Below, in pieces: positions 27,594 to 57,840 of a DNA stretch of 64,000 nucleotides. This DNA comes from Candidatus Multivoradales bacterium (lineage in GTDB: Bacteria; Acidobacteriota; Thermoanaerobaculia; Multivoradales; JAHEKO01), in NCBI GenBank assembly GCA_965248055.1, contig CBDFIJ010000004.1, positions 1,344,001 through 1,408,000 of the forward strand. The letters are read 5' to 3'. How positions within the stretch are numbered: the first letter of the stretch is position 1; each line of letters begins with the position of its first letter. The position numbers were made by a program, and so were the translations under genes. The notes under the pieces were generated by a model. It made no database searches and had not been told where the DNA came from. It worked only from the letters and a program-made list of their open reading frames with translations.

Positions 27594-27769
27594 TGTATTC
27601 AAACGGCACTGTATTCAAATGGCACTGTATTCAAATGGCACTGTATTCAAACGGCACTGTATTCAAACGGCACTGTATTCAAACGGCACTGTATTCAAAC
27701 GGCACTGTATTCAAACGGCACCGTATTCAGGTGGCACCGTATTCAGATAGCACAGCATCCAGGTAGCGC
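27594..27769. repeat. 16-bp tandem repeat TGTATTCAAAYGGCAC, 8 near-perfect plus 3 degenerate units
   Basis: Read directly from the sequence. Confidence 0.95.
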
Positions 27770-35040: not shown

Positions 35041-35148
35041 CTCCCCTAAGTGCCAGATGAGATGAGTCGGTCGGTCTCCAAGCTGGGACAATGTGCCAGT
35101 TTGGATCAACCAAAGAAATCGGCATCTAGCCGAGAAAGGAGACCGACC

Positions 35149-36162
35149 ATGGAGTATCTTGGCATTGACGTTCACTCAAAGTACAGCGAGGTATGTGGGA
35201 TATCTCAGGAGGGTGAGGTGACGGTTCGTCGTCGGATTTCGACGACGGAGACGTCGATCCGTGGGTTCTTCGGTTCTCGTGAGCGTGCACAAGTGACGCT
35301 GGAGAGCGGTCCGGTGACGCCGTGGGTATATCGGTTGCTGTGTGATCTAGGTCATGCGGTAACGGTAGTCAATCCCCGGCGAGTGCGTTTGATTGCCGAA
35401 TCGACACTAAAGACCGACGGCATTGATGCCGAGGTTTTAGCTCGGCTGAGCCGATTAGACCTGGGGTTTCTGCGTCCGGTGTATCAGCGAAGCCCTGAGG
35501 CCCAGGAGCTTCGCACTCGTTTACGGGTGCGATCGGCTCTGGTTAAGTCTCGGACTTCGTTGATCAACGCGGTACGTGGGACTCTGCGTGCTCAGGGCTA
35601 CCGGATGCCTTCGTGTGCGGCCAAGATTTTCATGGTGCGTTACGAATCGATGGGATTCGATTCGGGAGTATCAGAGGCCCTGGCTCCCTTGGTATCGACG
35701 ATCGGTGAGCTGTCGGATCGGATCTGTGAGCTAGAGAATGACCTGAAAGCTCAAGCAAGTACCGATGAGCTTCTCGTTCGTCTGCAGACAGTGCCCGGGG
35801 TAGGGCCTCTGGTGAGCTTGGCTTTTGCCGGCTGGGTAGACAATCCAGATCGGTTTCAAAAGAGTCGAGATGTTGGAGCATGCCTGGGCTTGAGGCCCTC
35901 GCTTCGCAGCTCAGGAGGGCATGAGATCCGTGGCCGGATCACTCGGGAGGGGGATAGCGAGATGCGCCGACTCCTGGTCCAGGCTGCGCATGCATCTTTA
36001 CAGTGTCACAAGGACTCAGCGCTCAAGCGCTGGGGTGAGGGTTTGGTGGCAAGGCTAGGTAAGAGCAAAGCAGTGGTAGCGCTGGCTAGAAAGATCGGAG
36101 TCCTACTGCATAGGTTGTGGGTCACAAACGAGAATTTCCAGCCGTTTCCACAAGCCACATAA
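35149..36162 (+). CDS. IS110-family DEDD recombinase/transposase
   Basis: YLGIDVH, KTDGIDA, VPGVGP, GLRPSLRSSG and ALARK. Confidence 0.95.
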   Translation: MEYLGIDVHSKYSEVCGISQEGEVTVRRRISTTETSIRGFFGSRERAQVTLESGPVTPWVYRLLCDLGHAVTVVNPRRVRLIAESTLKTDGIDAEVLARLSRLDLGFLRPVYQRSPEAQELRTRLRVRSALVKSRTSLINAVRGTLRAQGYRMPSCAAKIFMVRYESMGFDSGVSEALAPLVSTIGELSDRICELENDLKAQASTDELLVRLQTVPGVGPLVSLAFAGWVDNPDRFQKSRDVGACLGLRPSLRSSGGHEIRGRITREGDSEMRRLLVQAAHASLQCHKDSALKRWGEGLVARLGKSKAVVALARKIGVLLHRLWVTNENFQPFPQAT

Positions 36163-36421
36163 GCGAGGATTCGAAGTAAGAAAGCAAGAGAAATCAGTCA
36201 TGAGTTTCAAAGGACGGATGAAAAGTTTCGATGACTCCGATAAATGGGTTGGAGGCTGGGACTCCGCGTGCCAGATGGGAGCATCGAATTTCCTCAACAG
36301 ACGGAAAACTCACCATGCACCGGTCCAAAGACGGACCCAAGAGAGTGCGAATAGAAGCTCGTCCTGAGGTTAGATCCGAATCTAAAGAACGCATGATCGA
36401 TGGAAAGAAAACCCTTGACTG
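36163..36421 (+). ncRNA. Candidate bridge/seek RNA region of the IS1111 element
   Basis: Long 3' non-coding region containing GTGCCAG (36268, left target plus core) and ATAGAAG (36351, left donor plus core). Confidence 0.65.
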
Positions 36422-36486
36422 GACCGCCCGACTCATAGAAGCCGATTACTTGCAAGGTTGGGAACCTACGTTGCGTCTCCATTCCT

Positions 36487-37374
36487 ATGAGCCGCCGACT
36501 TCGATTCATCCCACCCGGTGGGGCGCTGGTAGAAATCACCTGCCGTACCTTTCAAGGGCGTTACCTCCTCAAGCCGTCTCCCGCTGTCAATCGGTGCATC
36601 CTGGGGATTCTCGGGCGGGCTCAGAGACTCTACCCCACCGAGGTCCATGCCTTTGTATTCATGTCGAATCACTACCATCTCTTGGTCTCAGTACCCGACG
36701 CTCAGCGCATGGCGCAATTCGTCGGCTACCTCAACAGCAATCTGGGACGCGAGTTGGGCAGAATGCATGGATGGAACGGGAAGTTTTGGGATCGCCGTTA
36801 TCAGGCCATCGTAGTCAGCGAAGAGGAAGCGGCTCAAGTGGCTCGACTTAAATACCTGTTGAGCCAAGGAGTCAAAGAGCGCTTAGTTAGACGTCCCACT
36901 GACTGGCCAGGTCTCCATGCTGCCAAGATCCTCCTGGCTAGTAATAGCACGATCACAGGCCGCTGGCGCGACCGAACACGCGAGTACCACGCCAGAGGAG
37001 CAGGCAATACGCAGGTATTTATGTGTATCGAACGACTCCACCTAACGCCCCTTCCATGTTGGCGTGATCAAACTACGCTTTGGATGCGACAACGAGTTCA
37101 AGAACTCGTCGACCTAGTCTGTGAAGAGAATTCCGGCCAAATCGTTGGAGATCCGCCCAATCCCAAACCCACCAAGCGTCCTGCCAGAATCAAGAGATCC
37201 CCAGTTCCACTTTTTCACTGTGCCACCAAGGCAGCCCGCAAAGCACTCTACGAAGCCTACTCCTGGTTTGTTGCCGCCTACAGGGATGCTTGTGAGCGAC
37301 TCAAAGCTGGGCACGAAAACGCCACCTTCCCTCCGGGATCGTTCCCACCGCCCAGACCATTCGTTCCTGTCTAG
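36487..37374 (+). CDS. RAYT-like HUH Y1 transposase, full copy 1
   Basis: HAFVFMSNHYHLL (HUH), FWDRRY and KYLLSQGVKE...PTDWPG. Confidence 0.88.
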   Translation: MSRRLRFIPPGGALVEITCRTFQGRYLLKPSPAVNRCILGILGRAQRLYPTEVHAFVFMSNHYHLLVSVPDAQRMAQFVGYLNSNLGRELGRMHGWNGKFWDRRYQAIVVSEEEAAQVARLKYLLSQGVKERLVRRPTDWPGLHAAKILLASNSTITGRWRDRTREYHARGAGNTQVFMCIERLHLTPLPCWRDQTTLWMRQRVQELVDLVCEENSGQIVGDPPNPKPTKRPARIKRSPVPLFHCATKAARKALYEAYSWFVAAYRDACERLKAGHENATFPPGSFPPPRPFVPV

Positions 37375-37609
37375 CTAATTACCGCTCGGTTTGGGCTGAA
37401 CCGGCACTTAGGAGAGGTATGTCCAATCTGAGTCTCTCCCTGTCTAAGAGCTCGATCCCGGAGTCAGAGTTCCGTTCCGGTGTGATTCCGGCCACCAACT
37501 GGGGAGCGCAGATGCGCCGACAACCGAGCTTCAGGAGGTGCTTCCAGACCTCTCAATAATCGCCTGGGACCTCAGTCAGGTACCTCGGCCCAACTCTTTC
37601 TTCGCACCT

Positions 37610-38101
37610 CTACCTAGAATGCACCATTCCAGAGTCCTTCGATACTGAATCAACTCTGACGTACTCCATGACGAGAGAAACTGACTCCTCTCCCCCAACT
37701 CGAACGGACAAGCCCAACACACACGCATCCAAGTCCTCGAAGAGATCAGCTTCCGAAAGATCGTCCCATCTGATGAAGGCGGACTGAGTTGCACCCCGTT
37801 CGACCACACACCTTCTCTCACACGAACCCTTATGAACACGTGCTTCGGATTTTGCTGTTGAACCGTCAACACGCGCAACTTCGCCGCACCGGTTAGTCAC
37901 AAGTACGTTATGCAAGAGCGGTGGAGGCGAGGGAGCAAAGACAGTAATAGGTTGCCACCGAATGTCTAGGCACTCAGTACTCACCTGGCAATCTACAGAA
38001 GGCTGCCCGGAACAGACCGGACGAAACTCTACCCACCGATCACAACCACAGACTACAAGTAGGACTACGCCCATGGTCCATATCGTCTTTGTCACGGGCA
38101 T
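37610..38101 (-). CDS. Putative immunity lipoprotein
   Basis: Overlaps the toxin-tip stop; hydrophobic leader ending VCGC. Confidence 0.7.
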   Translation of the reverse strand: MPVTKTIWTMGVVLLVVCGCDRWVEFRPVCSGQPSVDCQVSTECLDIRWQPITVFAPSPPPLLHNVLVTNRCGEVARVDGSTAKSEARVHKGSCERRCVVERGATQSAFIRWDDLSEADLFEDLDACVLGLSVRVGGEESVSLVMEYVRVDSVSKDSGMVHSR

Positions 38102-38891
38102 GGATTTCCTACTTCACCTAGGACCATTGCAGCGTGTCCAATTGCCTGAGCTTCATATTCGTTGTCAACGTACGCATCCATACCTCTCAACCAAGCCCTG
38201 GTCGACGCTCCTAAGTACCTAGGGGCGAAGGAATAAACACCTCCGGCAAACTCACCGGCTTGATCACTATGAGTCAGTTCGTGGGCCACCAAGAGTGCAC
38301 TAGACTCCAGCTGGTCATAGGCGTCCTTGGCAAGGTAGATATCTGATCCAAGTGTAATCCCTCCCCAGTCCTCTTCTGACATCCCAGGTAGCAGTCCACG
38401 ATGGATCGTAACCGTTGAAAGGTTTATCGAGTAGTACGGCTGGAAAGAAGCCGAATAACAGTCCGGCAATAGCTTACTACCATCTGGATTCTGCTTGTTC
38501 TTCAAGTTTTGACCCCCAATCGTATCTTTGTCGCCAGCATCGTTGACTTGTGTCGGAACACCCACTGGGTTGTTTGAGAAGAAAGATAGGAGGATAGATG
38601 CGGACACCTCGGGCGGGGGAGCCGACCCTTGGATCTCATGGTAATCAGTTGGACCTGCAATCCCGGATGCTATGTCAAGCGCGGCTTCCCTGGAGAGGGC
38701 CACCTGAGAAACGTGGTAAGAAATGGGCTCCAGGCCATTGGGATCAAAGTACGTGATAACACCTCCTCTGGCATACCCATACCGATTCCAACTCCCCCCA
38801 CTTCCAGTATTGCCCAACACAGGGTCGACGCTCATAAACCTCCCTAAGTGGTTCGTATAAAACCTCGCATGCATGTAATCCATCCCAGTAT
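38092..38891 (-). pseudogene. Orphan Rhs core end plus HExxH (DUF4157-like) tip, cut by IS256
   Basis: DYMHARFY...WNRYGY...FDPNG, then GITLG...AHELTHSDQ. Confidence 0.85.
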
Positions 38892-40260
38892 GAGATATAA
38901 CCGAAAGTTGTGTATGAGAGTTTGAAGGCGGCGTATCCTGAGCCCGGTTTTCAAAGCTGGGTTCAATCATCCCAAAAGGAGGATACGCCGTTGAGCAAGA
39001 GTAACGTAGTTTCAATCGATCAAGTAGAACGTCCTGAGGACGCTCTGAGTGAGGTCTTGCGCCGAGGTTCACGGTTGCTTCTTTGCGAAGCAATCGAGGC
39101 AGAGGTGGAGAGTTTTTTGGTTGAGTACCAAGATCAACGTACGGCGGTCGGTCACCGGCGGTTGGTGAGAAACGGCTACATGCCAGAGCGGGAGATCCAG
39201 ACCGGAATCGGCGGCATTTCGGTCAAAGTGCCACGGGTGCGGGATCGCCAGGGTGAGCTTCATTTTCGCTCCAATCTAGTGCCACCGTATCTGCGCCGGT
39301 CCAAGAGCATCGCGGATCTCTTGCCCTGGCTATACTTACGGGGGATTTCTACCGGGGACTTCTCACGAGCTCTGGAAGTTTTGGTGGGCCCTGAAGCGCC
39401 AGGTCTTTCGTCTTCGACGGTGAGCCGCCTCAAACGCGTCTGGGGCCAGGAGTACAGCGAATGGCGGCAGCGCGATCTTTCGTCCAAGCGCTACGTCTAT
39501 GTATGGGCTGACGGCATTTACTGCAAGGCTCGCCTGGATAACGCCAAGCTCTGCTTGCTGGTGTTAATTGGTGCCACTGCGGACGGCAACAAAGAACTGA
39601 TCGCTGTTGAAGACGGTTACCGGGAGAGTGAGGCGTCATGGCTGGAGCTGTTGCGAGGCCTGGAAGCAAGAGGCCTTACATTCGAGCCTAAGATCGCAAT
39701 CGGTGACGGCAATCTGGGTTTCTGGAAGGCTCTGGCTCAGGTGTGGGGAAATACCAAGACCCAGCGCTGCTGGGTCCACAAGACGGCCAACGTCTTGAAT
39801 AAGCTCCCCAAGGCGATCCAGCCCAAGGCCAAGCAGGCAATCCACCAAATCTGGATGGCGCAGACACGTCACGATGCCGAGAGGGCTTTTGATGCATTCC
39901 AGGCAATCTACCAAGCTAAATATCCGAAAGCAGTCCAGTGCTTGGTCAAAGATCGCGTCCAGCTACTCGCTTTCTACGATTTCCCGGCTGAGCACTGGGT
40001 GCATTTGAGGACCACCAACCCAATCGAATCAACTTTTGCTACCGTACGCTTGAGAACCTCCAAAACCCGGGGCTGTCTGTCGCGAGAAACCATGCTCTCG
40101 ATGGTCTTCAAGCTGTGCCAAAGCGCAGAAAAACGATGGCGGAGGCTACAGGGCTACAGGCGCATTGCCGAAGTCGTTGAAGGTCTCCAGTTCGTGGACG
40201 GAGAAAAACAAAAACAGATCGCCGCCTGATGGCTCAATACACAACTTTTGACAATAACTC
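38892..40260 (+). mobile_element. IS256-family element, copy 1 (transposase 38991-40229)
   Basis: TIRs GAGATATAACCGAAAGTTGTGTAT / ATACACAACTTTTGACAATAACTC; WADG, QRCWVHK and TTNPIES; no target duplication. Confidence 0.93.
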
Positions 40261-40370
40261 CCATTGCTACCCCAGGTGGTCATGTTTCCGGAGGCGTCGT
40301 AACCGGCCACTGACAGCCGGTTGGTGTTGGCGTTAACCGCAATGGTGGTGGTTTGACATACCTCCAACAT
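40261..40370 (-). pseudogene. 5' stub of an orphan Rhs cassette
   Basis: MLEVCQTTTIAVN..TNRLS...GNMTTWGSNG, interrupted by IS256. Confidence 0.8.
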
Positions 40371-40461
40371 TCGGGTGGCACCTTTCCGGCCCGCACCGGA
40401 CCTCTTTAGAGCACCTACTTAGACATGTCCAACGATTGGTGTCCACCTCTACCAACAAACA

Positions 40462-41091
40462 TCAAGAATCCCAAATCTTGATCGCATCTATCACTCGCCA
40501 ATCACTATCTTCACGTTGCAAAACCACCATCCGTCCAGCTCCGCCTAGCTCAGCCCACTGACGCCCATAGTAAAGCAGCGCCTGACCACCATCACTGCTG
40601 AAGCCGACTCTAGAGAACACGATAATCCCCGCGGAGTCCGGGTAGCGGTCGTAGAACACACTCCAGGAAGGAACGCCTTCAAGCTCGTAGAGGGGAAAGT
40701 GACCGCTGCTGTTGTTCACTAATGTGACACGTGTATCGCTAAAGTGAGATCGATTCAACTTGATTGCCGCCTGGTTTTTTCTCACAAAAGATTCGAAAGT
40801 CGATCGTCGGAGATCAGATACGTGGACAGATAGCCACCCCCAAAGGCTCGACTGATCTTGGACGATGTCTTGCTCTTGAAAGGCCGGATCCATCGTTGTC
40901 TTATTGAATACGACGAGGGTGCTCGCTTCTGCATTTCCTCCGCCGGTAACTGCCCACGTCTTGTCTTGGAAGAGTCGGTTGTAGATTTCATAGTCTCGGA
41001 GGTGCTCATGCGGTACAGGAGCATGGCAAGACATCGCTGCGAAACCAATCGCGACCGAGAAAGATAGACCCAATGCTCGATTTCGCATCAC
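40462..41091 (-). CDS. Putative immunity lipoprotein
   Basis: Downstream of the orphan tip; leader ending AAMSC. Confidence 0.65.
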   Translation of the reverse strand: MMRNRALGLSFSVAIGFAAMSCHAPVPHEHLRDYEIYNRLFQDKTWAVTGGGNAEASTLVVFNKTTMDPAFQEQDIVQDQSSLWGWLSVHVSDLRRSTFESFVRKNQAAIKLNRSHFSDTRVTLVNNSSGHFPLYELEGVPSWSVFYDRYPDSAGIIVFSRVGFSSDGGQALLYYGRQWAELGGAGRMVVLQREDSDWRVIDAIKIWDS

Positions 41092-41167
41092 CCCCCTCTG
41101 TTCGTCTTGAGCTTATTCATTGTGAGTTGTACCTATTTCAGCCCCAAGTGGCAACGTTCCTGTAAGT

Positions 41168-41743
41168 TCAAAAAATACAGGTTGCACAATAACCACCATT
41201 AACACCATGCCATTGACCATTGACGAGTACGCTAGATACACCCCCTCCACTTATATTTGAGAAACCCGACCACAAGCTGTTACCGCCGCCACCGCTGCCT
41301 GGTGCTTCAGGAGGCAGCTGCGTTTCCGACTGTTCGGGCACCGGCTTACTGGGAAAATGGTAATCCCATTCTGGCTCCTCTTCTGGTTTCCATTCTGGTC
41401 CGCAGCCTCCAGTCGATATTCCTTGTTCAAGCAACCAACCGGTTGCGGCCCCTCTGGATATGTCTCCCGATTCCGTCATAATCCGGGCAAGGTCTTGCTC
41501 CATGAATTGATGCTCGTCCCAGTTGTCTGCCCAGGTTCCGGAGAAGATGGCGATTCTCTCGCCTGAGAAGTTATACAAGAAGTACCAGCGGGCACCCTGG
41601 GTCACCATGTTGTTGGCGGTATCGTACTCATAACCATTGGCACCCCAGGAGGTCATGTTGCCGGAGGCGTCGTAGGCAGCGGATGACAACCGATTCGTGT
41701 CTGGATTCACAGCGATGGTGGTAGTTTGACATACCTCCAACAT
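41168..41743 (-). pseudogene. Orphan Rhs cassette with internal deletion (core start fused in frame to a tip fragment)
   Basis: Core sequence stops at GERIA (about 41548) and joins unrelated sequence without DPxG. Confidence 0.75.
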
Positions 41744-41767
41744 TCGGGTGGCACCTTTCCGCAGTTG

Positions 41768-42180
41768 GCTGGCGCGACCGAACACGCGAGTACCACGCCA
41801 GAGGAGCAGGCAATACGCAGGTATTTATGTGTATCGAACGACTCCACCTAACGCCCCTTCCATGTTGGCGTGATCAAACTACGCTTTGGATGCGACAACG
41901 AGTTCAAGAACTCGCCGACCTAGTCTGTGAAGAGAATTCCGGCCAAATCGTTGGAAGTCTGCCCAATCCCAAACCCACCAAGCGTCCTGCCAGAATCAAG
42001 AGATCCCCAGCTCCACTTTTTCACTGTGCCACCAAGGCAGCTCGCAACGCCCTCTACGAAGCCTACTCCTGGTTTGTTGCCGCCTACAGGGATGCTTGTG
42101 AGCGACTCAAAGCTGGGCACGAAAACGCTACCTTCCCTCCGGGATCGTTTCCACCGCCCAGACCATTCGTTCCTGTTTAG
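41768..42180 (+). pseudogene. RAYT copy 2, 5'-truncated
   Basis: Near-identical to 36962-37374. Confidence 0.92.
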
Positions 42181-42620
42181 TTGATTCCGTTCCGTTTGGG
42201 TTTTATCGGCGCTTAGGGATTAGTATATCCAGTCCGAGTTTCTCCCCGTCCAAGAGCTGAACCGCTGAGCGAAAGTTCCGTTTCGGTGTGAATGAGATCA
42301 CGAACTTGACGTGTTCAATATATCCCTGATCAGCCCAATCAAGCAATTCTAGATTCTCTCAATAATCGCCTGGGACCTCAGTCAGCGGCTGGGCTTACCA
42401 AAGCCTGGGGTACCGAGGACTGATAACTCGACTACCTAGATCCTGATGAGTGGCTGGAGCGTCATCGACTCCTACTTAGAGAGACCCAACAACACGCGCT
42501 GCCTTTCTTTGATCACTCAATACCGGGACGCCCCCCACCCGGAAAGAAAAGATGTACCCCTTGACATAACGCCGCCTAATAAGTGGCACCCAATCCAATC
42601 AGCTTCATTCTGCTTCACAC

Positions 42621-43358
42621 CTATTTCTCTATCTCCTCCTCACTCTCCTCCCAAGCCTCCAACCACTGAAGTGTCTTTTCAACCTTATGCGTCAAATTCT
42701 CGATTTCATCCTCATCTTCCTCGCCCTCAGGCAGTTCACGAAGCAGTTTCAAAGCGTCGTGGGCGGCAGCTAGAGCCTCGTCGTGGCGCCCCAGATCGTA
42801 GTACGAATAGGCCATCCCGTGGCGGCCTTCGATCCTCACAAATGTCTCCGCGCCGCGCTCGAATGCTTCCCGGAATCCAGCGAGCGCATCTTCTTCGCGG
42901 CCGAGCATCGACAAGGATCCCGCTTCGTAAATCCAGCCCCAAGGTTCGCCTCCCTCTCGCGCCAGCTGGAAGTACGGGAGAGTGACTTCCGGACCCATCT
43001 CCTCTCGAAGATAAATTGCAAACCACAGTAGTAGGTTCGCATCTACACCTTTCATCAGATGGGGAGGACTTGCATAACTAAGCGCCTCTCGAAATTCCCT
43101 TTTCTCAACAAGCAGCCGCAGCATGAACTCCCTCGCCATCGTGCTACTGGGGTCTAGCTTGAGGGCCGCACGATACAACCGCTTGGCCTTTATCTCATTG
43201 CCCATCGCGTTTCGTATCCACCCTCGCCAAGCCAACGACCACGCGTCCCGCCAGCCGAGAAACTCGGCCGCCAGGAGAAAGGCGTGCGAGGTCCGATAGT
43301 GACCGTTTTCGCAAAGCTCCATCGCCCTGTCGCGAGCCGCCTTCAGGAAATTGTACAT
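42621..43358 (-). CDS. TPR-repeat protein, putative immunity protein
   Basis: TPR-like helices (YRAALKLDP, YYDLGRHDEAL); directly downstream of an orphan tip. Confidence 0.75.
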   Translation of the reverse strand: MYNFLKAARDRAMELCENGHYRTSHAFLLAAEFLGWRDAWSLAWRGWIRNAMGNEIKAKRLYRAALKLDPSSTMAREFMLRLLVEKREFREALSYASPPHLMKGVDANLLLWFAIYLREEMGPEVTLPYFQLAREGGEPWGWIYEAGSLSMLGREEDALAGFREAFERGAETFVRIEGRHGMAYSYYDLGRHDEALAAAHDALKLLRELPEGEEDEDEIENLTHKVEKTLQWLEAWEESEEEIEK

Positions 43359-43439
43359 ATGTCTAGTGCTCTCTTTTCGGGCCCGGAAAGGGAAATCCAG
43401 CTTGCCCGTTGACTAAAAACTATCAACTGTTGGACCCCC

Positions 43440-44828: not shown

Positions 44829-45048
44829 TCGGGTGGCACCTTTCCGCAGAGCACTGCAGTGTGGCACCTCAATCCAATCAGCGGTTCCGGCACCACAATC
44901 ACAGAAGTTCCATTTTCGGCGTAATCTCTGCCACCAACTAGGCACTCTGAAGCACCTACGCCGACCCCAATGCGTGATCCTAGGCCTCCAAATAATCGCC
45001 TGGCACCATTATCTCCTCTATCTCCTCTATCTCCTCTATCTCCTGTTT

Positions 45049-45414: not shown

Positions 45415-45422
45415 CGACTCCG

Positions 45423-48957: not shown

Positions 48958-49193
48958 AGCTTCTCAGCAAAGGCGTGAAGCATCAACGCAAAGAAGGTCA
49001 GTCCGGCACCCACATTGCCCCACTCCCCTTCTCTAACCGCAAATCCGATGATAGCCCCAAAAACTAGTCCGATCAGAGCGAGTCCTACGGTCCAGCGCTG
49101 CCTCCTGCCAATTCTTACTGTAACCGCGAGAAGAACGCTAAAGCCAACCCCTGTTAAGACCAACTCCCATATTCGTTGCCAATCAAGTTTCAT
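48951..49193 (-). CDS. Small membrane protein, putative orphan immunity protein (3' end formed by a junction)
   Basis: Three hydrophobic segments; follows a tiny tip remnant (..GPPHCEQ*); its stop lies in the adjacent Rhs fragment. Confidence 0.55.
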   Translation of the reverse strand: MKLDWQRIWELVLTGVGFSVLLAVTVRIGRRQRWTVGLALIGLVFGAIIGFAVREGEWGNVGAGLTFFALMLHAFAEKLR

Positions 49194-49328
49194 CTACTGC
49201 TCACAATGAGGTGGACCCCACTCAATACCGGGACGCCCCCCACCCGGAAAGAAAAGATGTACCCCTTGACATAACGCCGCCTAATAAGTGGCACCATTAT
49301 CTCCTCCATTATCTCCTCTATCTCCTGA

Positions 49329-49580
49329 TCAGTTCCGCCATTTGGCCTCCAAAAGAAAGACGAGCATCGATATGACCACGATGATTCCGACAGAGAGAAG
49401 AATGCGTGTCGGAGTTTCGAGGTTCAGGCTCCGAGAAAGCTCAGAAACAAAGATCCCAGACAACATGCTGTTAAGAAAGATGCTCATCTTATTATCCATC
49501 CCCGTCAATCTTGGCAATATGACTAACGAGAGACAGGCCACAACGAACGAAACACCGACCATCTGCATGACTATTTTCAT
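49329..49580 (-). CDS. Putative membrane immunity protein
   Basis: ATGA overlap with the tip stop; 3 hydrophobic segments. Confidence 0.7.
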   Translation of the reverse strand: MKIVMQMVGVSFVVACLSLVILPRLTGMDNKMSIFLNSMLSGIFVSELSRSLNLETPTRILLSVGIIVVISMLVFLLEAKWRN

Positions 49581-50956
49581 TGAACCGCGCCCGCTGCTGC
49601 TCTGCAGACAAGGTCTCCAGAAACAACAATGCCGCTACCCATTGACATGCCAGCGGCCGCTCCGAATACTGCCCCGCCTGCTTCAACAGTCGCAGCGTAC
49701 ATGCCGGCACCTCCGTACCAAGCCGCTGTCGCAACGCCTGCCCAACAGGCTCCATAAACCACCGTCGAGCGTGAATGTACGTCCCCCAGCACTTCGAACT
49801 CATGCCGGTCGTTGCGAACAACTGCTTCCCAAGCATTGTTCTCATTCCATCCCCTCCATGTACCATTCCCGCTGTTCTCTGCAGACCCGAATGATATCTC
49901 TGGTGGAGTCGTAGCTGTTGTCTCATTAGCCGTTATCGTGAGGCCCTCTGAAAAAGTACCATCGGAGTCCTTCGTGACACCTGTACTAGTGGAGCTGATG
50001 GTAGTGGTGCTCTTGGTTTTGCCGTCTGTTATCTTGATTGTGCTTGCCCCGGTACTTAGATCGGTTGTAATAGTCTCCGTAGATCCATCTGCATAGGTTA
50101 TGGTCGTGGTTTCGTGAGTTGGTTGGTAGATCGCATCCAAATTCGCATCGAACAATGCCGCGCCAACGTCACCCACGGCCTCGCCGGTCCCAATGCCCGT
50201 ACAAGTTCCCGATAGAAGTCCGTAAATAATTGCCGCCCCACTCCCCGACAATGCACAGTGAGCCATCGCCCTGCCATCCGGATCTACACCTCCAATCGGA
50301 TTTCCCGCCACATAAGAATACGCATTCCAAACCCCATCTCCTCGATTCACCGGATCCACTCCCATCAGTCTCCCCAAATGCGAGGTGTAGTACCTAGCAT
50401 GCATGTAATCCAAGCCGGTATCCGCATCTCTTTCATGCCCGGTGAATTTCATGATGCCATTACCCGCCGCTGTGATCTCCTGCCCATAGGGTAGATATTC
50501 ATGCTCTGAGACTTTGTTGCCAGAGCTATCGGTCACCAGCCGGATGCTCCCCAGATGGTCAGTATGGTAATGCTGCTTGGTACCTGAGCCATCTTCCGTT
50601 CCCAGGAGCTTCCTGCCCATCCAGATGTAGTCCATCTCGTGGGACCAATTACCGGATTGGTCTTCACCGACGAGCTTAAAGGTAGATAACACCTGGTTGG
50701 AGGGGCCGCGGATGGTCCAATCGACCTCGCGGGTAGCAATCGAGCCCTGCCAGTCAATGGTGGCGATTCTCTCGCCTGAGAAGTTATACAAGAAGTACCA
50801 GCGGGCACCCTGGGTCACCATGTTGTTGGCGGTATCGTACTCATAACCATTGGCACCCCAGGAGGTCATGTTGCCGGAGGCGTCGTAGGCAGCGGATGAC
50901 AACCGATTCGTGTCTGGATTCACAGCGATGGTGGTAGTTTGACATACCTCCAACAT
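49577..50956 (-). CDS. Uninterrupted orphan Rhs core plus hydrophobic tip
   Basis: YHTDHLGS, KFTGHERD and NPIGGVDPDG, followed by a Gly/Ala-rich tip. Confidence 0.85.
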   Translation of the reverse strand: MLEVCQTTTIAVNPDTNRLSSAAYDASGNMTSWGANGYEYDTANNMVTQGARWYFLYNFSGERIATIDWQGSIATREVDWTIRGPSNQVLSTFKLVGEDQSGNWSHEMDYIWMGRKLLGTEDGSGTKQHYHTDHLGSIRLVTDSSGNKVSEHEYLPYGQEITAAGNGIMKFTGHERDADTGLDYMHARYYTSHLGRLMGVDPVNRGDGVWNAYSYVAGNPIGGVDPDGRAMAHCALSGSGAAIIYGLLSGTCTGIGTGEAVGDVGAALFDANLDAIYQPTHETTTITYADGSTETITTDLSTGASTIKITDGKTKSTTTISSTSTGVTKDSDGTFSEGLTITANETTATTPPEISFGSAENSGNGTWRGWNENNAWEAVVRNDRHEFEVLGDVHSRSTVVYGACWAGVATAAWYGGAGMYAATVEAGGAVFGAAAGMSMGSGIVVSGDLVCRAAAGAVQ

Positions 50957-50977
50957 TCGGGTGGCACCTTTCCGGCC

Positions 50978-51216
50978 GCCAAATCGTTGGAAGTCTGCCC
51001 AATCCCAAACCCACCAAGCGTCCTGCCAGAATCAAGAGATCCCCAGCTCCACTTTTTCACTGTGCCACCAAGGCAGCTCGCAACGCCCTCTACGAAGCCT
51101 ACTCCTGGTTTGTTGCCGCCTACAGGGATGCTTGTGAGCGACTCAAAGCTGGGCACGAAAACGCTACCTTCCCTCCGGGATCGTTTCCACCGCCCAGACC
51201 ATTCGTTCCTGTTTAG
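50978..51216 (+). pseudogene. RAYT copy 3, 3' fragment
   Basis: Matches 41942-42180. Confidence 0.92.
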
Positions 51217-51466
51217 TTGATTCCGTTCCGTTTGGGTTTTATCGGCGCTTAGGGATTAGTATATCCAGTCCGAGTTTCTCCCCGTCCAAGAGCTGAACCG
51301 CTGAGCGAAAGTTCCGTTTCGGCGTGAATGAGATCACGAACTTGACGTGTTCAAGATAGCCGTGATCAGCCCAATCAAAGAATCCTAGATTCTCTCAATA
51401 ATCGCCTGGAACCTCAGTCCAGCTGCCCGAGCAGACCTCTTAATAATCGCCTGGGACCTCAGTCAG

Positions 51467-51766
51467 CTTCCCAAGCATTATTCTCATTCCATCCCCTCCA
51501 TGTACCATTCCCGCTGTTCTCTGCAGACCCGAATGATATCTCTGGTGGAGTCGTAGCTGTTGTCTCATTAGCCGTTATCGTGAGGCCCTCTGAAAAAGTA
51601 CCATCGGAGTCCTTCGTGACACCTGTACTAGTGGAGCTGATGGTAGTGGTGCTCTTGGTTTTGCCGTCTGTTATCTTGATTGTGCTTGCCCCGGTACTTA
51701 GATCGGTTGTAGTAGTCTCCGTAGATCCATCTGCATAGGTTATGGTCGTGGTTTCGTGAGTTGGTT
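51467..51766 (-). repeat. Duplicated internal fragment of the 49577/45423 toxin tip
   Basis: Near-identical to about 49825-50124; bounded by junction motifs; a 55-bp piece recurs at 56617-56673. Confidence 0.9.
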
Positions 51767-51820
51767 GCACCTTTCCGGCCGAGGTATCGCCGCCAAATAA
51801 TCGCCTGGCACCACTATCTG

Positions 51821-52511
51821 GGTCTCAGTACCCGACGCTCAGCGCATGGCGCAATTCGTCGGCTACCTCAACAGCAATCTGGGACGCGAGTTGGGCAGAA
51901 TGCATGGATGGAACGGGAAGTTTTGGGATCGCCGTTATCAGGCCATCGTAGTCAGCGAAGAGGAAGCGGCTCAAGTGGCTCGACTTAAATACCTGTTGAG
52001 CCAAGGAGTCAAAGAGGGCTTAGTTAGACGTCCCACTGACTGGCCAGGTCTCCATGCTGCCAAGTTACTCCTGGCAAGAAATAGCACTCTCACAGGCCGC
52101 TGGCGCGACCGAACACGCGAGTACCACGCCAGAGGAGCAGGCAATACGCAGGTATTTATGTGTATCGAACGACTCCACCTAACGCCCCTTCCATGTTGGC
52201 GTGATCAAACTACGCTTTGGATGCGACAACGAGTTCAAGAACTCGCCGACCTAGTCTGTGAAGAGAATTCCGGCCAAATCGTTGGAAGTCTGCCCAATCC
52301 CAAACCCACCAAGCGTCCTGCCAGAATCAAGAGATCCCCAGCTCCACTTTTTCACTGTGCCACCAAGGCAGCTCGCAACGCCCTCTACGAAGCCTACTCC
52401 TGGTTTGTTGCCGCCTACAGGGATGCTTGTGAGCGACTCAAAGCTGGGCACGAAAACGCTACCTTCCCTCCGGGATCGTTTCCACCGCCCAGACCATTCG
52501 TTCCTGTCTAG
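51821..52511 (+). pseudogene. RAYT copy 4, 5'-truncated just after the HUH codons
   Basis: Near-identical to 36684-37374. Confidence 0.92.
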
Positions 52512-52760
52512 CTAATTACCGCTCGGTTTGGGCTGAACCGGCACTTAGGAGAGGTATGTCCAATCTGAGTCTCTCCCTGTCTAAGAGCTCGATCCCGGAG
52601 TCAGAGTTCCGTTCCAGTGTGATTCCGGCCACCAACTGGGGAGCGCAGATGCGCCGACAACCGAGCTTCAGGAGGTGCTTCCAGACCTCTCAATAATCGC
52701 CTGGGACCTCAGTCAGTCAGCTCAGGCGGCTCCTATCTGCCTTCCCGCACAATTCCAGAC

Positions 52761-53279
52761 CTATTTCTTCTGCATTCTACGAATTCCAGCAATCAGCGAC
52801 GTGAGGCGCGGAAACCGAACGCGATAGTACGCTCTTTCAAATTCATCGCGGTATTTCTCGGCATCTGCCTCAGAACCTCCCCCGGCACGACCGTTCAGTA
52901 GTGCCACGTGGTGGCCAATCTCGTGAAATAGCGTATCTCGAATCATTAGCGGGCGGAGTACTTTGGTCCAATAGAGCAATCGAGGATATGAGGCGAACAG
53001 ATTGTCTACAAGTATTTCAATGTGAGCGAGTTTGTGGTGTCGCGGAGCAAAATACGATCCAAGAGTGTTTTCTCGCAGATGCGTCCGTCCATGCACACGG
53101 TAAGGGGCCCGCTCCTTTCTTGATAGGGATGCCACATCTCGCAAAATGACACTCCCAAGACCCCGTGTGTACTTTTCCGGCAGCGTCACAAGCGTGCGCT
53201 CAACGACTTTCTCGACACCTCCAAAAGGGCTGGTTAGAGGGTGCCACAAGACTTTCAGGAGACGGCCTTTCTTCGACAT
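52761..53279 (-). CDS. Putative immunity protein with an HExxH motif
   Basis: TLFHEIGHH...EADAEKY; directly downstream of a tip fragment. Confidence 0.7.
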   Translation of the reverse strand: MSKKGRLLKVLWHPLTSPFGGVEKVVERTLVTLPEKYTRGLGSVILRDVASLSRKERAPYRVHGRTHLRENTLGSYFAPRHHKLAHIEILVDNLFASYPRLLYWTKVLRPLMIRDTLFHEIGHHVALLNGRAGGGSEADAEKYRDEFERAYYRVRFPRLTSLIAGIRRMQKK

Positions 53280-53306
53280 GGAGTCCACAGCCACAAGGAT
53301 TCAGCT

Positions 53307-53784
53307 CTAGGGGTCACCATCAAACGCCTTCCCGATCCCATTCCAGATTATCATCTTAGCCTTCCCCCAGCGCGAAGTCGGCGATAGGAGTTCGTCCGCG
53401 TCAGGAGCAACGCCTTTTGCGTATTTTAGTCCCCTCCCCGCCTTTCCGCTCATCTTCACGAGGTACTTCGCTCTAGCAATCTTCGCAGCTGAACGTACCT
53501 TCCCTCCGGGTAGAACGAAGGTTGCCAGCTCGCCCAGTCCCTCGGCTATTTCAGTCTGTCCATCAAAGTGGTTAATTCCGCTAGAGGCGCCGCAGCCCAA
53601 TATGTTGTCGCCAAGACAGACGCCGCCAGAAGCATTCGTCCTTACCCTTGTAGTTATAACAGTGAGTTCTTCGTTCACTGAGAATGACCCAGCGTCAAAT
53701 TTCACTCCCGAGGATTCAGCAGAATCCACCCAAGCCCAATATGCTTTGACTTCTTCAGGGCTTGCCCCCGCAAGAAACTCAGCG
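53307..53784 (-). pseudogene. Orphan toxin-tip fragment truncated by the RAYT left end
   Basis: Open frame ending GKAFDGDP*; no core or start; abuts CTCCCCTAAGTGCCAG. Confidence 0.6.
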
Positions 53785-54935
53785 CTCCCCTAAGTGCCAG
53801 CTGATTATTTGCAAGGTTGGGAACCTACGTTGCGTCTCTATCCCCATGAGCCGCCGACTTCGATTCATCCCAGCCGGTGGGGCGCTGGTAGAAATCACCT
53901 GCCGTACCTTTCAAGGGCGTTACCTCCTCAAGCCGTCTCCCGCTGTCAATCGGTGCATCCTGGGGATTCTCGGGCGGGCTCAGAGACTCTACCCCACCGA
54001 GGTCCATGCCTTTGTATTCATGTCGAATCACTACCATCTCTTGGTCTCAGTACCCGACGCTCAGCGCATGGCGCAATTCGTCGGCTACCTCAACAGCAAT
54101 CTGGGACGCGAGTTGGGCAGAATGCATGGATGGAACGGGAAGTTTTGGGATCGCCGTTATCAGGCCATCGTAGTCAGCGAAGAGGAAGCGGCTCAAGTGG
54201 CTCGACTTAAATACCTGTTGAGCCAAGGAGTCAAAGAGGGCTTAGTTAGACGTCCCACTGACTGGCCAGGTCTCCATGCTGCCAAGTTACTCCTGGCAAG
54301 AAATAGCACGATCACAGGCCGCTGGCGCGACCGAACACGCGAGTACCACGCCAGAGGAGCAGGCAATACGCAGGTATTTATGTGTATCGAACGACTCCAC
54401 CTAACGCCCCTTCCATGTTGGCGTGATCAAACTACGCTTTGGATGCGACAACGAGTTCAAGAACTCGTCGACCTAGTCTGTGAAGAGAATTCCGGCCAAA
54501 TCGTTGGAGATCCGCCCAATCCCAAACCCACCAAGCGTCCTGCCAGAATCAAGAGATCCCCAGTTCCACTTTTTCACTGTGCCACCAAGGCAGCTCGCAA
54601 CGCCCTCTACGAAGCCTACTCCTGGTTTGTTGCCGCCTACAGGAATGCTTGTGAGCGACTCAAAGCTGGGCACGAAAACGCCGCCTTCCCTCCGGGATCG
54701 TTTCCACCGCCCAGACCATTCGTTCCTGTTTAGTTGATTCCGTTCCGTTTGGGTTTTATCGGCGCTTAGGGATTGGTATATCCAGTCCGAGTTTCTCCCC
54801 GTCCAAGAGCTAAACCGCTGAGTGAAAGTTCCGTTTCGGCGTGAATGAGATCACGAACTTGACGTGTTCAAGATAGCCGTGATCAGCCCAATCAAAGAAT
54901 CCTAGATTCTCTCAATAATCGCCTGGAACCTCAGT
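53785..54935 (+). mobile_element. Complete RAYT-like element with imperfect inverted end motifs
   Basis: Left end GTGCCAGCTGATTATT, gene, 180-bp trailer, right end AATAATCGCCTGGAACC. Confidence 0.75.
53846..54733 (+). CDS. RAYT-like HUH Y1 transposase, full copy 5
   Basis: 295 aa, near-identical to 36487-37374. Confidence 0.88.
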   Translation: MSRRLRFIPAGGALVEITCRTFQGRYLLKPSPAVNRCILGILGRAQRLYPTEVHAFVFMSNHYHLLVSVPDAQRMAQFVGYLNSNLGRELGRMHGWNGKFWDRRYQAIVVSEEEAAQVARLKYLLSQGVKEGLVRRPTDWPGLHAAKLLLARNSTITGRWRDRTREYHARGAGNTQVFMCIERLHLTPLPCWRDQTTLWMRQRVQELVDLVCEENSGQIVGDPPNPKPTKRPARIKRSPVPLFHCATKAARNALYEAYSWFVAAYRNACERLKAGHENAAFPPGSFPPPRPFVPV

Positions 54936-55019
54936 CCAGCTGCCCGAGCAGACCTCTTAATAATCGCCTGGGACCTCAGTCAGTACCCCTTGACACCACG
55001 CCGCCTAATAAGTGGCACC

Positions 55020-55361
55020 TCAGTCAGCAGCACACAAGACGAAGGGCACTCCGGCGAGTACACAAACTACAAGGCCAATACCTGCAACACGACGCACCAA
55101 GCTACCGATCCGAACAAGTCTCGCCCCTAGAGCGTCGTCTTCTGCCCACATTGTATTTGCCGCACCGTCGATGAAATACGCAAATGGAACGAAAGTTCCA
55201 AACAACCATTTTGGGAAATCGCGTTTCTTCTTATATCTGAATAAGAGAACATACACTGCAGCCAACCAAACGGTTATCACAAACAAGAACTGCGTCATCA
55301 TTCCGGCAACGAAGAACACTTGGACTATCCTACATACCATTTCAGTCTCCCTCAGATGCAA
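55020..55361 (-). CDS. Putative membrane immunity protein; stop codon supplied by a junction tail
   Basis: Hydrophobic segments; starts 3 bp after the tip stop; ends in the TCAGTCAG tail. Confidence 0.65.
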   Translation of the reverse strand: MHLRETEMVCRIVQVFFVAGMMTQFLFVITVWLAAVYVLLFRYKKKRDFPKWLFGTFVPFAYFIDGAANTMWAEDDALGARLVRIGSLVRRVAGIGLVVCVLAGVPFVLCAAD

Positions 55362-55364
55362 TAT

Positions 55365-55742
55365 TTACTCACTAGAGCACGGATCACCAATGGTCCCAGA
55401 AGTAGACTCTCCGCTTGCCCATGCCGCACCAGGCGGTCCACCGGTAATGGAGACGGACCAATTGCTTTGACCAGAATAGTTGTCTTTGCTTCTCGTAAAA
55501 CCGACAGGGCCAGCCATCCATAGAGAGGTTGTTTGACTCGATCCTAGCGGTGGGCCGTGGGTGTACTGGATTCCAGCCCCTACCGCAACCCCAATTCCGT
55601 TTCCTTCAGTGCTCCGTCCAGCTAGCCCGCGCGTGCCGGCAGAGCCCTCTAAAGCGGCCCCCTTCCAGAGTCCCCCCGCTGCTGCCGCTACGAATTCAAC
55701 GCTATTATTGCAGTAGATTTCGACAATCTCTTCGAGTACCGC
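55365..55742 (-). pseudogene. Orphan Gly-rich toxin-tip fragment cut by IS256
   Basis: Open frame ending IGDPCSSE*; abuts the IS256 TIR. Confidence 0.65.
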
Positions 55743-56271
55743 GAGATATAACCAAAAGTTGTGTATGAGAGTTTGAAGGCGGCGTATCCTGAGCCCGGTT
55801 TTCAAAGCTGGGTTCAATCATCCCAAAAGGAGGACACGCCGTTGAGCAAGAGTAACGTAGTTTCAATCGATCAAGTAGAGCGTCCTGAGGACGCTCTGAC
55901 CGAGGTCTTGCGCCGAGGTTCACGGTTGCTTCTTTGCGAAGCAATCGAGGCAGAGGTGGAGAGTTTTTTGGTTGAGTACCAAGATCAACGTACGGCGGTC
56001 GGTCACCGGCGGTTGGTGAGAAACGGCTACATGCCAGAGCGGGAGATCCAGACCGGAATCGGCGGCATTTCGGTCAAAGTGCCACGGGTGCGGGATCGCC
56101 AGGGTGAGCTTCATTTTCGCTCCAATCTAGTGCCACCGTATCTGCGCCGGTCCAAGAGCATCGCGGATCTCTTGCCCTGGCTATACTTACGGGGGATTTC
56201 TACCGGGGACTTCTCACGAGCTCTGGAAGCTTTGGTGGGCCCTGAAGCGCCAGGTCTTTCGTCTTCGACGG
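55743..56271 (+). mobile_element. IS256 copy 3, left-end fragment
   Basis: Near-identical to 38892-39420; ends abruptly at a motif-A unit. Confidence 0.92.
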
Positions 56272-56727
56272 CCCGAGCAGACCTCTTAATAATCGCCTGG
56301 GACCTCAGTCAGAGCGTCACTTCCAGATCTCTCAATAATCGCCTGGAACCTCAGTCACAGTCACCGCCGGGGGAAATCTATCCCTTGACATAACCCCGCC
56401 TAATAAGTGGCACCTCAATCCAATCAGCGGTTCCGGCACCACAATCACAGAAGTTCCATTTTCGGCGTAATCTCTGCCACCAACTAGGCACTCTGAAGCA
56501 CCTACGCCGACCCCAATGCGTGATCCTAGGCCTCCAAATAATCGCCTGGCACCATTATCTCCTCTATCTCCTCTAGCCCGAGCAGACCTCTTAATAATCG
56601 CCTGGGACCTCAGTCAGTAGTAGTCTCCGTAGATCCATCTGCATAGGTTATGGTCGTGGTTTCGTGAGTTGGTTGCACCTTTCCGGCCGAGGTATCGCCG
56701 CCAAATAATCGCCTGGCACCACTATCT

Positions 56728-57030
56728 CATTTCGTCGATACATAAAGGGAAAATGTCCACCCCGGGATCACAGCCCGAAGCAGCCATCGCCAGAATCACT
56801 ATTGAACTCAAAGACATTTTTCGCAGCATTGTCCTATGCTCCATTATCAAACCGGCTACTTAGCCGTCTCCACATGGGTCACCGACGGCCTTGTCCGTCA
56901 TCTCCTCGACAGCATAGGCCTCCTGCTCCTGATGGATAGCAGCATAGGCTTGGTCGCCGGTCATTCCGGCGGCAACACCATCGAGCCAATGGTCGCCATA
57001 GTCCGACAAGAACGAGACAAGGCCCCCGAA
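56728..57030 (-). pseudogene. Remnant of a tip (56860-57030) and its lipoprotein immunity start (56844 downward), paralogous to the 38092/37610 pair
   Basis: FGGLVSF...EQEA...VGDPC versus AGGVYSF...EAQA...VGNPC; SGCDPGVDIFPLC versus CGCDRWVEFRPVC. Confidence 0.65.
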
Positions 57031-57071
57031 CGGGATCGTTTCCACCGCCCAGACCATTCGTTCCTGTTTAG
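57031..57071 (+). pseudogene. RAYT copy 6, last 41 bp plus trailer
   Basis: CGGGATCGTTTCCACCGCCCAGACCATTCGTTCCTGTTTAG. Confidence 0.9.
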
Positions 57072-57438
57072 TTGACTCCGTTTCGTTTCGGGATTTTGTC
57101 GGCGCATAGGGATTGGTATATCCAGTCCGAGTTTCTCCCCGTCCAAGAGCTGAACCGCTGAGTGAAAGCTCCGTTTCGGCGTGAATATGATCGCAACTTA
57201 ACGTGTTCAATATATCCGTGATCAGCCTGATCAAGGAATTCTAGATTCTCTCAATAATCGCCTGGGACCTCAGTCACCTATTCCGGCCACCAACTGGGGA
57301 GCGCAGATGCCCCGACAACCGAGCCTCGGAGGTGCTTCCAGACCTCTCAATAATCGCCTGGGACCTCAGTCAGTCTAGATACTGAGTGGTCTGCGTGAGG
57401 TCGCCCATATTGGACTGCGTCGACAGCCAGCCGGGGCA

Positions 57439-57840
57439 CTACAAAGATTTGAGATAATCCGCGCACCACTTGAAACCAGATATTGTTTCAAACTCGACAC
57501 TAACCTCAGGATGCTTGAAGATTGGGACGTACGCCGCTTCTTTACCAATGACCGAAACAACCACCTTTCTCCCTTCCCAATGCAAGTCACAAACCGCGAC
57601 GTAGCCAGTACGCACGAGATCGATTCTCTTACCTCGTACTCCTGCTGGTATATTTTTAGCGGTTTCCCTAAAGTCCATGATTCCAACTACATACGGCTGA
57701 TCTTCGTCGCCCGCGGAGCGCACTCGCCGAATGATGAAAGCCGCATACTGCCCGTCCTGGCTGTCAATCGAGTAAACCGGGTATTCACACGAGCAGCTTG
57801 AACAAAGTAAGAGGCATCCTAGAACAATAGATTTCATCAT
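57439..57840 (-). CDS. Cognate immunity protein candidate, lipoprotein-like
   Basis: ATGA overlap with the Rhs stop; MMKSIVLGCLLLCSSC leader. Confidence 0.75.
   Translation of the reverse strand: MMKSIVLGCLLLCSSCSCEYPVYSIDSQDGQYAAFIIRRVRSAGDEDQPYVVGIMDFRETAKNIPAGVRGKRIDLVRTGYVAVCDLHWEGRKVVVSVIGKEAAYVPIFKHPEVSVEFETISGFKWCADYLKSL

Follow-up and report, generated by a model that had tools for sequence, protein, structure and literature searches.

Gain of orphan modules by Rhs, contact-dependent growth inhibition (CDI) and type VI secretion system (T6SS) loci is usually credited to horizontal transfer and homologous recombination; Rhs orphan arrays in particular are said, in the work of Jackson in 2009 and Koskiniemi in 2014, to arise via C-terminal displacement and homologous recombination. 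We know of no dedicated machinery for the acquisition or ordering of orphan toxin modules, and every Y1 enzyme that has to our knowledge been characterised needs a hairpin. Here we analyse a stretch of 64,000 nt, hereafter the window, from the genome of an uncultured Acidobacterium with Thermoanaerobaculia-like relatives (57% GC; genome G000, contig C4, positions 1344001-1408000), in which an Rhs toxin gene and its orphans are interspersed with copies of a Y1 (HUH) transposase gene and of a short repeat. The described elements that this gene matches are the TIRYT or TIRtron elements, i.e. RAYT-like Y1 genes with terminal inverted repeats (TIRs), the repeats occurring also as dimers and clusters, which the relevant passages of their source report from an acidobacterium, Koribacter, among others (PMC3733652); a part of a TnpA-Y1 classification largely equates them with its subclass 2.1 (PMC6006769). 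We propose, with middling confidence, that the Rhs toxin island of the window grew beside a resident TIRYT/TIRtron Y1 gene, the enzyme of which cuts and rejoins the termini of its TIRs.

The Y1 protein (295 aa) matches PF01797 in Pfam (37.4 bits; cut-off 23), and its HUH motif (H62-Y-H64) and Y123 are invariant in 25 homologues, in which the tyrosine motif reads Y---Q/H. The N-terminal 150 residues of its AlphaFold model (pLDDT 86) are closest in fold to TnpA-REP (4ER8; TM 0.75 on the target), followed by ISDra2 TnpA (2XM3) and IS608 TnpA; by sequence, the best match among solved structures is to the IS200/IS605 transposases, the group of these last two (E 1.5e-4). The C-terminal half (150 aa) has no Pfam match, neither to a helix-turn-helix (HTH) nor to a DnaA-like domain, and no fold match. 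The genome holds nine full-length paralogues (62-67% mutual identity) plus fragments. Two full-length genes lie in the window, at 36487-37374 within element copy 1 (36444-37579) and at 53846-54733 within element copy 2 (53794-54938). Copy 1 starts with the remainder of a left TIR and ends with a right TIR at 37550-37579 (core 37565-37571; terminus after TCAGTCAG), and copy 2 has an intact left TIR (53794-53816) and a right TIR with its core at 54924. Together with four 5'-truncated copies—41768-42386 (aa 160-295; right TIR core 42371), a copy starting at 50978 (aa 218-286) and another at 51820-52716 (aa 65-295), both with a right TIR, and a 3' fragment at 57031-57276—they make up the set of two full and four truncated genes, all on the plus strand, that an original prediction made from the letters of the window had described.

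Ends are readable at eight left and seven right sides of the paralogues of the source genome: about 52 nt separate the left TIR (GGTNCCA(C/G)CCGA..) from the start codon downstream of it, and the right TIR, its inverted copy ending in TGGNACC, follows about 190-390 nt past the stop codon. The TIR is about 25-38 nt long, with a core (left ends, GGTNCCA; right ends, TGGNACC) and a few conserved bases beyond it. The same arrangement recurs in other genomes. Among 80 related Y1 loci (1.19 Mb in total), which hold 53 full-length homologues, TGGNACC is present at +200 to +340 after the stop codon in 36 of the 53; the right-end consensus reads ..AATCG(G/C)(C/G)TGGCACCT and left ends read AGGTGCCA(C/G)CCGA(A/T)T. 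A position weight matrix (PWM) of the family, built from element ends, finds 269 matches in these loci, as against 22 in shuffled sequence; the TIR occurs as element ends, as solo copies and as tandem arrays, including arrays beside element ends, and inverted pairs are found among its copies in the related loci.

These properties match the TIRYT/TIRtron kind: a Y1 gene with flanking TIRs rather than REP hairpins, at similar distances from the gene (left about -52, right about +250); a repeat family with solo copies, dimers and clusters; and a TIR variant of its own for each diverged gene. The likeness is not complete. The published TIR motif GGGGWSAS agrees with GGTGCCAS here at six of eight positions; the tyrosine motif of class 2 is Y---NP, in contrast to Y---Q/H here; and subclass 2.1 is described with a C-terminal HTH-like domain, in contrast to the unmatched C-terminal half of our protein. 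TnpA-Y1 class 3 is described (PMC6006769) with a Y----Q motif and flanking structures with a CnGA foot, from Acidobacteria and Planctomycetes; in the family here the tyrosine motif is Y---Q/H, the TIR includes CCGA and the taxon agrees. The original prediction had spoken of a non-REPIN RAYT and had known of no description of such a system; the first point gives way to the match with TIRYT/TIRtron, and the second holds for the link to Rhs, not for the element type, which is described.

The window contains 64 copies of TGGNACC, compared to a mean of 34 in shuffles (0 of 100 shuffles reached 64). Between 35041 and 57440, 32 copies are on the plus strand and six on the minus strand, and 25 of the plus-strand copies carry an extended motif: the core is preceded by AATAATCGCC in 16 (motif A), by CTAATAAG in four (motif B) and by CAACATTCGGG in four (motif C), and one (44862) is odd. 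With two clipped TGCACC copies (51709 and 56617), these are the roughly 27 sites (25 with the core and two clipped), all in one orientation, that had been predicted, and the counts are correct. It had also rightly been noticed that motif A is the right end of the Y1 element and resembles its left end in inverted form: the right end of copy 1 (37550-37579) is an imperfect inverted copy of the left end of copy 2 (53794-53816). The one-way sites are the terminal inverted repeat of the Y1 family, conserved in most homologues, and their attribution to the Y1 element is borne out. Thirteen A-type right ends in the window carry a flank that begins TCAGTC, but left ends number only two; three other AATAATCGCC-type sites (types A5 and A6) have other flanks. 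The sites are not restricted to the island, a point on which the prediction had called for a genome-wide count: 25 of 75 PWM hits in the source genome fall in the window (shuffled sequence predicts about 20 for the whole genome), and the hits outside it cluster at other Y1 paralogues and in DNA rich in insertion sequences (ISs).

The outer termini of the TIRs are the breakpoints of the mosaic. The A1-type ends at 37579, 52716 and 57373 share sequence through TCAGTCAG and diverge right after it, and the four C-type ends share sequence through TTTCCG and then diverge; the flank types of the inner and outer sides have been recombined at the core, the B-type inner side, for example, being found with three outer types. 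Eleven TIR termini are followed, directly or within 20 nt, by a truncated element: three Y1 genes (from aa 160, 218 and 65), three ends of an IS110-family element (IS110-B), two tip fragments and three TIR fragments. The DNA to the right of the sites begins in mid-gene at 41768, 50978, 51820, 51466 and 56617, so that the predicted coincidence of sites with fragment boundaries holds. The mosaic at 50978-52716 (plus strand) is made up of two Y1 fragments, a solo TIR unit of 45 nt (51414-51458), a tip fragment (51466-51767; 99% identical to 49824-50125) and an A6-type TIR (core 51806). Solo TIR arrays occupy 54931-57375 (plus strand; cores 54969, 55013, 56298, 56344, 56408, 56547, 56603, 56714, 57263 and 57359); they are interleaved with an open reading frame (ORF) pair (55020-55817), the Y1 fragment at 57031-57276 and fragments of an IS256 element (55743-56271) and of a tip (56617-56727). 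Some of the moved pieces are 99-100% identical, compared to 82-95% for other paralogous parts; some of the events are therefore recent.

TIRs also form the 5' edges of toxin modules. Downstream of the intact Rhs gene (57837-63944, minus strand) lie five minus-strand orphan modules (I to V), which contain core-end domains and remnants of the Rhs core and have their 5' ends at about 40388, 41761, 44846, 48970 and 50974. In four of them (I, II, III and V) Rhs sequence gives way to a 38-nt C repeat at a shared position, corresponding to aa 1583 of the main gene, with TIR heads at 40351-40388, 41724-41761, 44809-44846 and 50937-50974; the main gene and the long orphan (IV) read on as Rhs at this point, and we therefore rejected the idea that motif C is itself Rhs coding sequence. 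The C repeat has its outer terminus pointing away from the gene and contains an in-frame ATG (MLEVCQTTTIAVNPD..). The four copies of this junction have diverged (84-100% mutual identity), which indicates that it is old. In G053, a sister species in the same genus (~72% nucleotide identity), two TIRs of an Rhs array (locus L094) run into core remnants, one at aa 1035 and the other at aa 1133; in both, the first 20 nt match the left end of the G053 Y1 element exactly, and the core GTG is in frame. In G010, a TIR is fused to Rhs at about aa 1104, 11 nt past the stop codon of the preceding gene, and in G045, which belongs to another family of the order, one TIR precedes a core-end remnant. Across four species, the independent junctions thus number five, and at every one of them the TIR contains a start codon, GTG or ATG, that is in frame.

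These in-frame heads raise an alternative, namely that the TIR is kept mainly for its start codon, and perhaps as a promoter or leader, accidental fusions having been retained by selection without any reshuffling. In its favour, the core GTG is in frame at four of four junctions in G053, G010 and G045, as is the ATG at the window junction; the left TIR stands about 50 nt upstream of the Y1 start codon; and the window junction is old. In a crude consensus scan from 40200 to 45100, however, no sigma-70-like promoter is predicted for the TIR heads (0 on the minus strand) and matches are no more frequent than in shuffles, and no Shine-Dalgarno sequence precedes the GTG in the TIRs of G053 and G010. 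This explanation would also leave unexplained the TIR termini that abut truncated Y1, IS110 and tip fragments and the tandem solo units; we consider it rather unlikely.

Beyond the window, Y1 genes lie beside Rhs 3' ends far more often than expected by chance. In a class-wide sample of 101 genomes, the full-length Y1 family is confined to the same order, where it occurs in 12 of 24 sampled genomes; one genus of this order (g6) accounts for 12 genomes with neither the Y1 family (0 of 12) nor Rhs core ends (0 of 12), and all other sampled genomes of the order have both. Core ends with a Y1 gene or fragment at most 3 kb away, in every case on the 3' side, are found in seven of the 12 genomes with the family (G000, G005, G010, G015, G045 with three loci, G089, and G093 with two), compared to about one such pair expected over all 12, and the odds are rough because related genomes are not independent. 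The enrichment of Rhs near Y1 homologues that the original prediction proposed to look for is likewise present, with eight core-end hits in six of the 80 related loci against about one expected from the rough class-wide density of 407 hits in 101 genomes. The source genome itself has 10 Rhs core-end matches at four loci, every one with a TIR within 6 kb, and at C4:1482520 the right end of another Y1 paralogue abuts a 5'-truncated Rhs end plus tip.

Comparison with G053 locates the island precisely. This sister species has only two Y1 copies, both syntenic with copies of the source genome and about as similar in nucleotide sequence as the flanking genes. At one of these positions its left flank, Y1 gene and right flank are contiguous, and nothing corresponds to the 30.7 kb from window position 34356 to about 65117, which make up the whole Rhs island; the island is bounded exactly by the right end of the resident, syntenic Y1 element on one side and by the next conserved gene on the other. 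Taken without outgroups, the comparison fits gain and loss of the island alike. The Rhs array of G053 (L094) has no Y1 gene, and six TIRs antisense to Rhs.

Other mobile elements share the locus. IS110-A (35050-36443, plus strand; transposase ORF 35050-36162; Pfam DEDD_Tnp_IS110 and Transposase_20), its ends defined from three other genomic copies, sits inside the left TIR of Y1 copy 1 and is flanked by the split halves of the TIR; all five of its right-end junctions in the source genome are followed by the rest of a left-type TIR (copies elsewhere: C4:1144161-1145554, 2104276-2105669, 683544 and 1488028). IS110-B is present in the window as 3' ends: its last 189 nt at 42403-42590 (plus strand), ending in CTAATAAG and TGGCACC, and shorter ends at 49219-49295, 54983-55019 and 56382-56414. 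Motif B matches the 3' end of an element with a 338-aa IS110 transposase at C4:3286998-3287512 and at three other places, the copies at these four positions being full or longer, and consists of the last 33-189 nt of IS110-B joined to a TGGCACC half-site. We therefore rejected motif B as a Y1 end. Both transposases exceed the cut-off of the NCBIfam IS110 profile NF033542 (236 and 205 bits; cut-off 140), and, with IS110-A at the left TIR and IS110-B at TGGCACC, both elements target the Y1 repeat. IS256 copies lie at 38892-40260 (plus strand) and 46178-47545 (minus strand). As a separate observation, IS110-A is always found at one fixed point of the Y1 TIR and resembles a bridge-RNA-type IS with the TIRYT repeat as its target. 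IS621 and its relatives in the IS110 family are well known to target REPs, and the IS110/IS1111 elements that target REPs or transposon TIRs (IS621, ISPpu9/10) are like both elements here in inserting at a fixed point inside a repeat; the target here is a TIRYT repeat and not a REP hairpin. The two elements of the window explain motif B and the disrupted left end, not the TIR-headed orphans.

The abundance of such elements suggests another origin for the mosaic, in which orphan Rhs regions tolerate and accumulate TIRYT, IS110 and IS256 insertions, those of TIRYT and IS110 elements preferring sites in or beside existing TIRs, later random deletions and unequal crossing-over between repeats do the rest, the Rhs modules are built by homologous recombination only, and toxin DNA moves without any part played by the Y1 enzyme. 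That three IS types besides the Y1 elements lie in the same 22 kb agrees with it, as do the TIR-type half-site at every IS110-A right-end junction, the identity of motif B as an IS110 end, the well-known preference of IS110 elements for REP-like repeats, the occurrence of TIRs in IS-rich DNA devoid of Rhs, and the second Rhs locus of the source genome, which is riddled with IS3 copies. Random deletions, however, are not expected to place 11 endpoints exactly at TIR termini, and should not fuse the inner side of the TIR to five Rhs positions in four species, always in frame; nor does this account sit easily with the six TIRs of the G053 array, where any Y1 gene or fragment is lacking, or with the proximity of Y1 and Rhs in seven of 12 genomes, always on the 3' side. 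We regard this origin, in both its parts, as possible though doubtful.

Under the reading that we propose, the Y1 enzyme would act in trans, cutting TIR termini and rejoining them to other TIRs or to look-alike sequences. Fusion of a TIR to mid-gene positions of the Rhs core would give TIR-headed toxin/immunity cassettes; DNA between TIRs in direct orientation would be deleted, duplicated or inserted; 5'-truncated neighbours would be left abutting intact termini; the two TIR-targeting IS110-family elements and the IS256 copies would add to the mosaic; and homologous recombination between core remnants would swap tips onto the main Rhs gene. The orphan core remnants are 82-94% identical to the main Rhs gene in sequence and could recombine with it. 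We infer that cutting and joining are the work of the Y1 enzyme.

A number of observations weigh against this reading, and two of them also speak for an IS-driven origin. Orphan IV has no TIR head, and elsewhere, among 20 orphan 5' boundaries in other genomes, a TIR core lies within 120 nt in only three (the G053 pair and G010) and is lacking in 17; none was found within 120 nt of the orphan starts, taken as approximate boundaries, in G015, G020, G065, G089 and G093. At the three Y1-fragment joints, the break is 7-16 nt outside the core and shows 3-8 nt of microhomology with the intact gene, a pattern that slippage or illegitimate recombination could equally have left. Because only one junction is shared by all four TIR-headed orphans of the window, these could have multiplied by plain unequal crossing-over. 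Rhs sequence is present in seven of the 80 related Y1 loci, and the other 73 are without it. Alignment folding of 28 right ends predicted no pairs (0) of a conserved hairpin, and the contigs that we used contain no circle and no junction polymorphism, their loose ends being explained by other copies.

A stronger form of the proposal is that an HUH enzyme operates the locus as a cassette system for Rhs toxins, in which the Y1 protein would cut and rejoin its 25-38-nt repeat and any TIR-headed toxin-immunity module could be excised and inserted beside another TIR downstream of Rhs, in the way that integrons treat attC cassettes. In such a system the TIR might serve in addition as the translation start of the cassette, and the system would be a route alongside homologous recombination. 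We put forward both the system and this second function of its repeat only tentatively.

It is very improbable that the mosaic is an artefact, i.e. a mis-join of repeats from several loci or strains during assembly. The repeats of the array, up to 1 kb at 95-98% identity, would lend themselves to such an error, and the short-read contigs (four runs, one sample) end at every repeat and therefore cannot confirm the order of the pieces; a 692-nt contig of run X4 moreover joins 52851-53298 to 54700-54852 via 91 other letters (~96% identity), an arrangement without most of Y1 copy 2 that is probably from another strain or copy. On the other side, the island lies within a 3.35-Mb contig (C4) and its conserved flanks are syntenic with G053, contigs from the four runs match its unique segments at 99-100%, and the same architecture is found in independent assemblies of three other species. 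The loose ends of the contigs, and an odd joint at 49295, all match other copies in the same genome, which speaks against a mis-join and is uninformative on heterogeneity or circles either way. As a separate point on the assembly, contigs C1-C3 of the source genome (14.8, 16.7 and 28.4 kb) have a GC content of 39-43%, as against 57% for the chromosome, carry no TIR copies, and may be foreign replicons or binning contaminants.

The island has the makeup of an Rhs polymorphic toxin locus, with RHS repeats, a core end (TIGR03696), a variable tip, an immunity-like ORF and orphan remnants. The intact gene encodes 2035 aa with RHS repeats and PKD/Ig domains (Pfam), and its immunity-like ORF (57439-57855, minus strand) follows it. 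Orphan cassette I (37610-40388) comprises an immunity-like ORF (37610-38101), a tip (38092-39093) in which an eCIS_core (DUF4157-like) domain lies beyond the Rhs core end, and a core remnant split by the plus-strand IS256 copy; cassette II (40462-41761), an ORF (40462-41091) and a core remnant with tip (41168-41723); cassette III (42621-44846), a TPR ORF (42621-43358), a further ORF (43440-44120) and a core remnant with tip (44184-44808); cassette IV (45049-48970), an ORF (45049-45414), a tip (45423-46190), the minus-strand IS256 copy in its interior and a long core remnant (47546-48970); and cassette V (49577-50974), a core remnant and tip ORF (49577-50956). With the two tip fragments and two pairs of minus-strand ORFs without assignment (52761-53729 and 55020-55817), the five orphans make the predicted figure of about nine orphan tip/immunity units a fair count. 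Most tip and putative immunity ORFs have no Pfam or NCBIfam match. Between the IS110-B end at 49219-49295 and the core remnant of the long orphan, an 80-codon ORF (48950-49190, minus strand) encodes a small protein that resembles a two- or three-helix membrane protein and, to judge from its sequence, is probably an immunity gene.

Several further observations concern the Y1 family and its repeats. About 20 nt upstream of Y1 starts (e.g. 53832-53840 in the window; loci L010-L034), a block reading (T)TTACGTCT(T/C), in the source genome TTGCGTCTC, is conserved across diverged homologues even where the left repeat has decayed, and may be a regulatory site. In locus L090 of G053 (8930-9385, C2), the syntenic Y1 element shows a tandem duplication of its 3' untranslated stretch together with its right repeat, in two copies of about 235 nt. 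At L005 (7428-8624; C4:1484428-1485624), a right-type TIR ending at C4:1484482 adjoins a gene, not Rhs, for a protein with CHASE2 and TIR domains (the latter a protein domain, distinct from the repeat); its match to the CHASE2 profile begins only at position 105 of 257, and the gene looks 5'-truncated. Elsewhere in the window, self-comparison shows a short tandem repeat at 27594-27745 with a 16-nt register and ~90-93% identity between shifted copies.

Our analysis connects a defined site and an enzyme family to the 5' edges of orphans in four species and to the breakpoints of an island, and thereby offers a testable handle on how such arrays are built. TIRYT elements, which have been little studied, thereby acquire a first candidate for a biological role. 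The ends also pose a question of mechanism, as the Y1 transposases known to have been characterised all need a hairpin and these ends are without one. If the cassette system proves true, orphan toxin modules would have a dedicated route by which they are gained and shuffled. The passages of PMC3733652 on TIRYT make no mention of Rhs, toxin cassettes or in-frame fusions, and the literature that we searched does not tie TIRYT, RAYT or HUH elements to Rhs arrays or to in-frame TIR heads. The element type is known; the Rhs link and the in-frame heads did not turn up elsewhere and are new as far as searched.

Like RAYT genes with their REP and REPIN sequences, the locus has an enzyme with a fold near 4ER8 and a gene bracketed by inverted copies of a short repeat scattered over the genome. 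Unlike them, its flanks are inverted copies of a non-palindromic motif, with neither a GTAG-tagged palindrome nor a conserved hairpin, and the protein scores 51.4 bits with the NCBIfam RAYT equivalog NF047646, below the cut-off of 80; as to the single-copy, vertical inheritance of RAYTs, the source genome has nine full copies plus fragments, whereas G053 has its two syntenic copies. The IS200/IS605 transposases share the HUH motif, the single tyrosine and the one-way ends, in addition to the best sequence match among solved structures, and by analogy their "peel and paste" mode would explain excision between like-oriented sites and placement beside a third. They differ in that our Y1 protein is twice as long and has inverted-repeat ends devoid of subterminal hairpins, no TnpB partner was seen, and the NCBIfam IS200 profile NF033573 gives 22.7 bits, below its cut-off of 55.

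Integrons are similar in layout only, having promoterless cassettes in one orientation, short sites in direct orientation and an adjacent recombinase gene. No attC structure was seen here, and no integrase was found among the ORFs scanned in the region, where no dedicated integrase search was made; an HUH nuclease is the candidate enzyme, with TIR copies of 25-38 nt as its sites. Arrays attributed to C-terminal displacement and homologous recombination likewise place 5'-truncated core remnants, with alternative tips and immunity genes, after an intact Rhs gene; in contrast to them, four of the five orphans here are headed by an in-frame TIR, the array carries one-way TIRs and truncated Y1 genes, and the island as a whole borders on a resident Y1 element at its right end.

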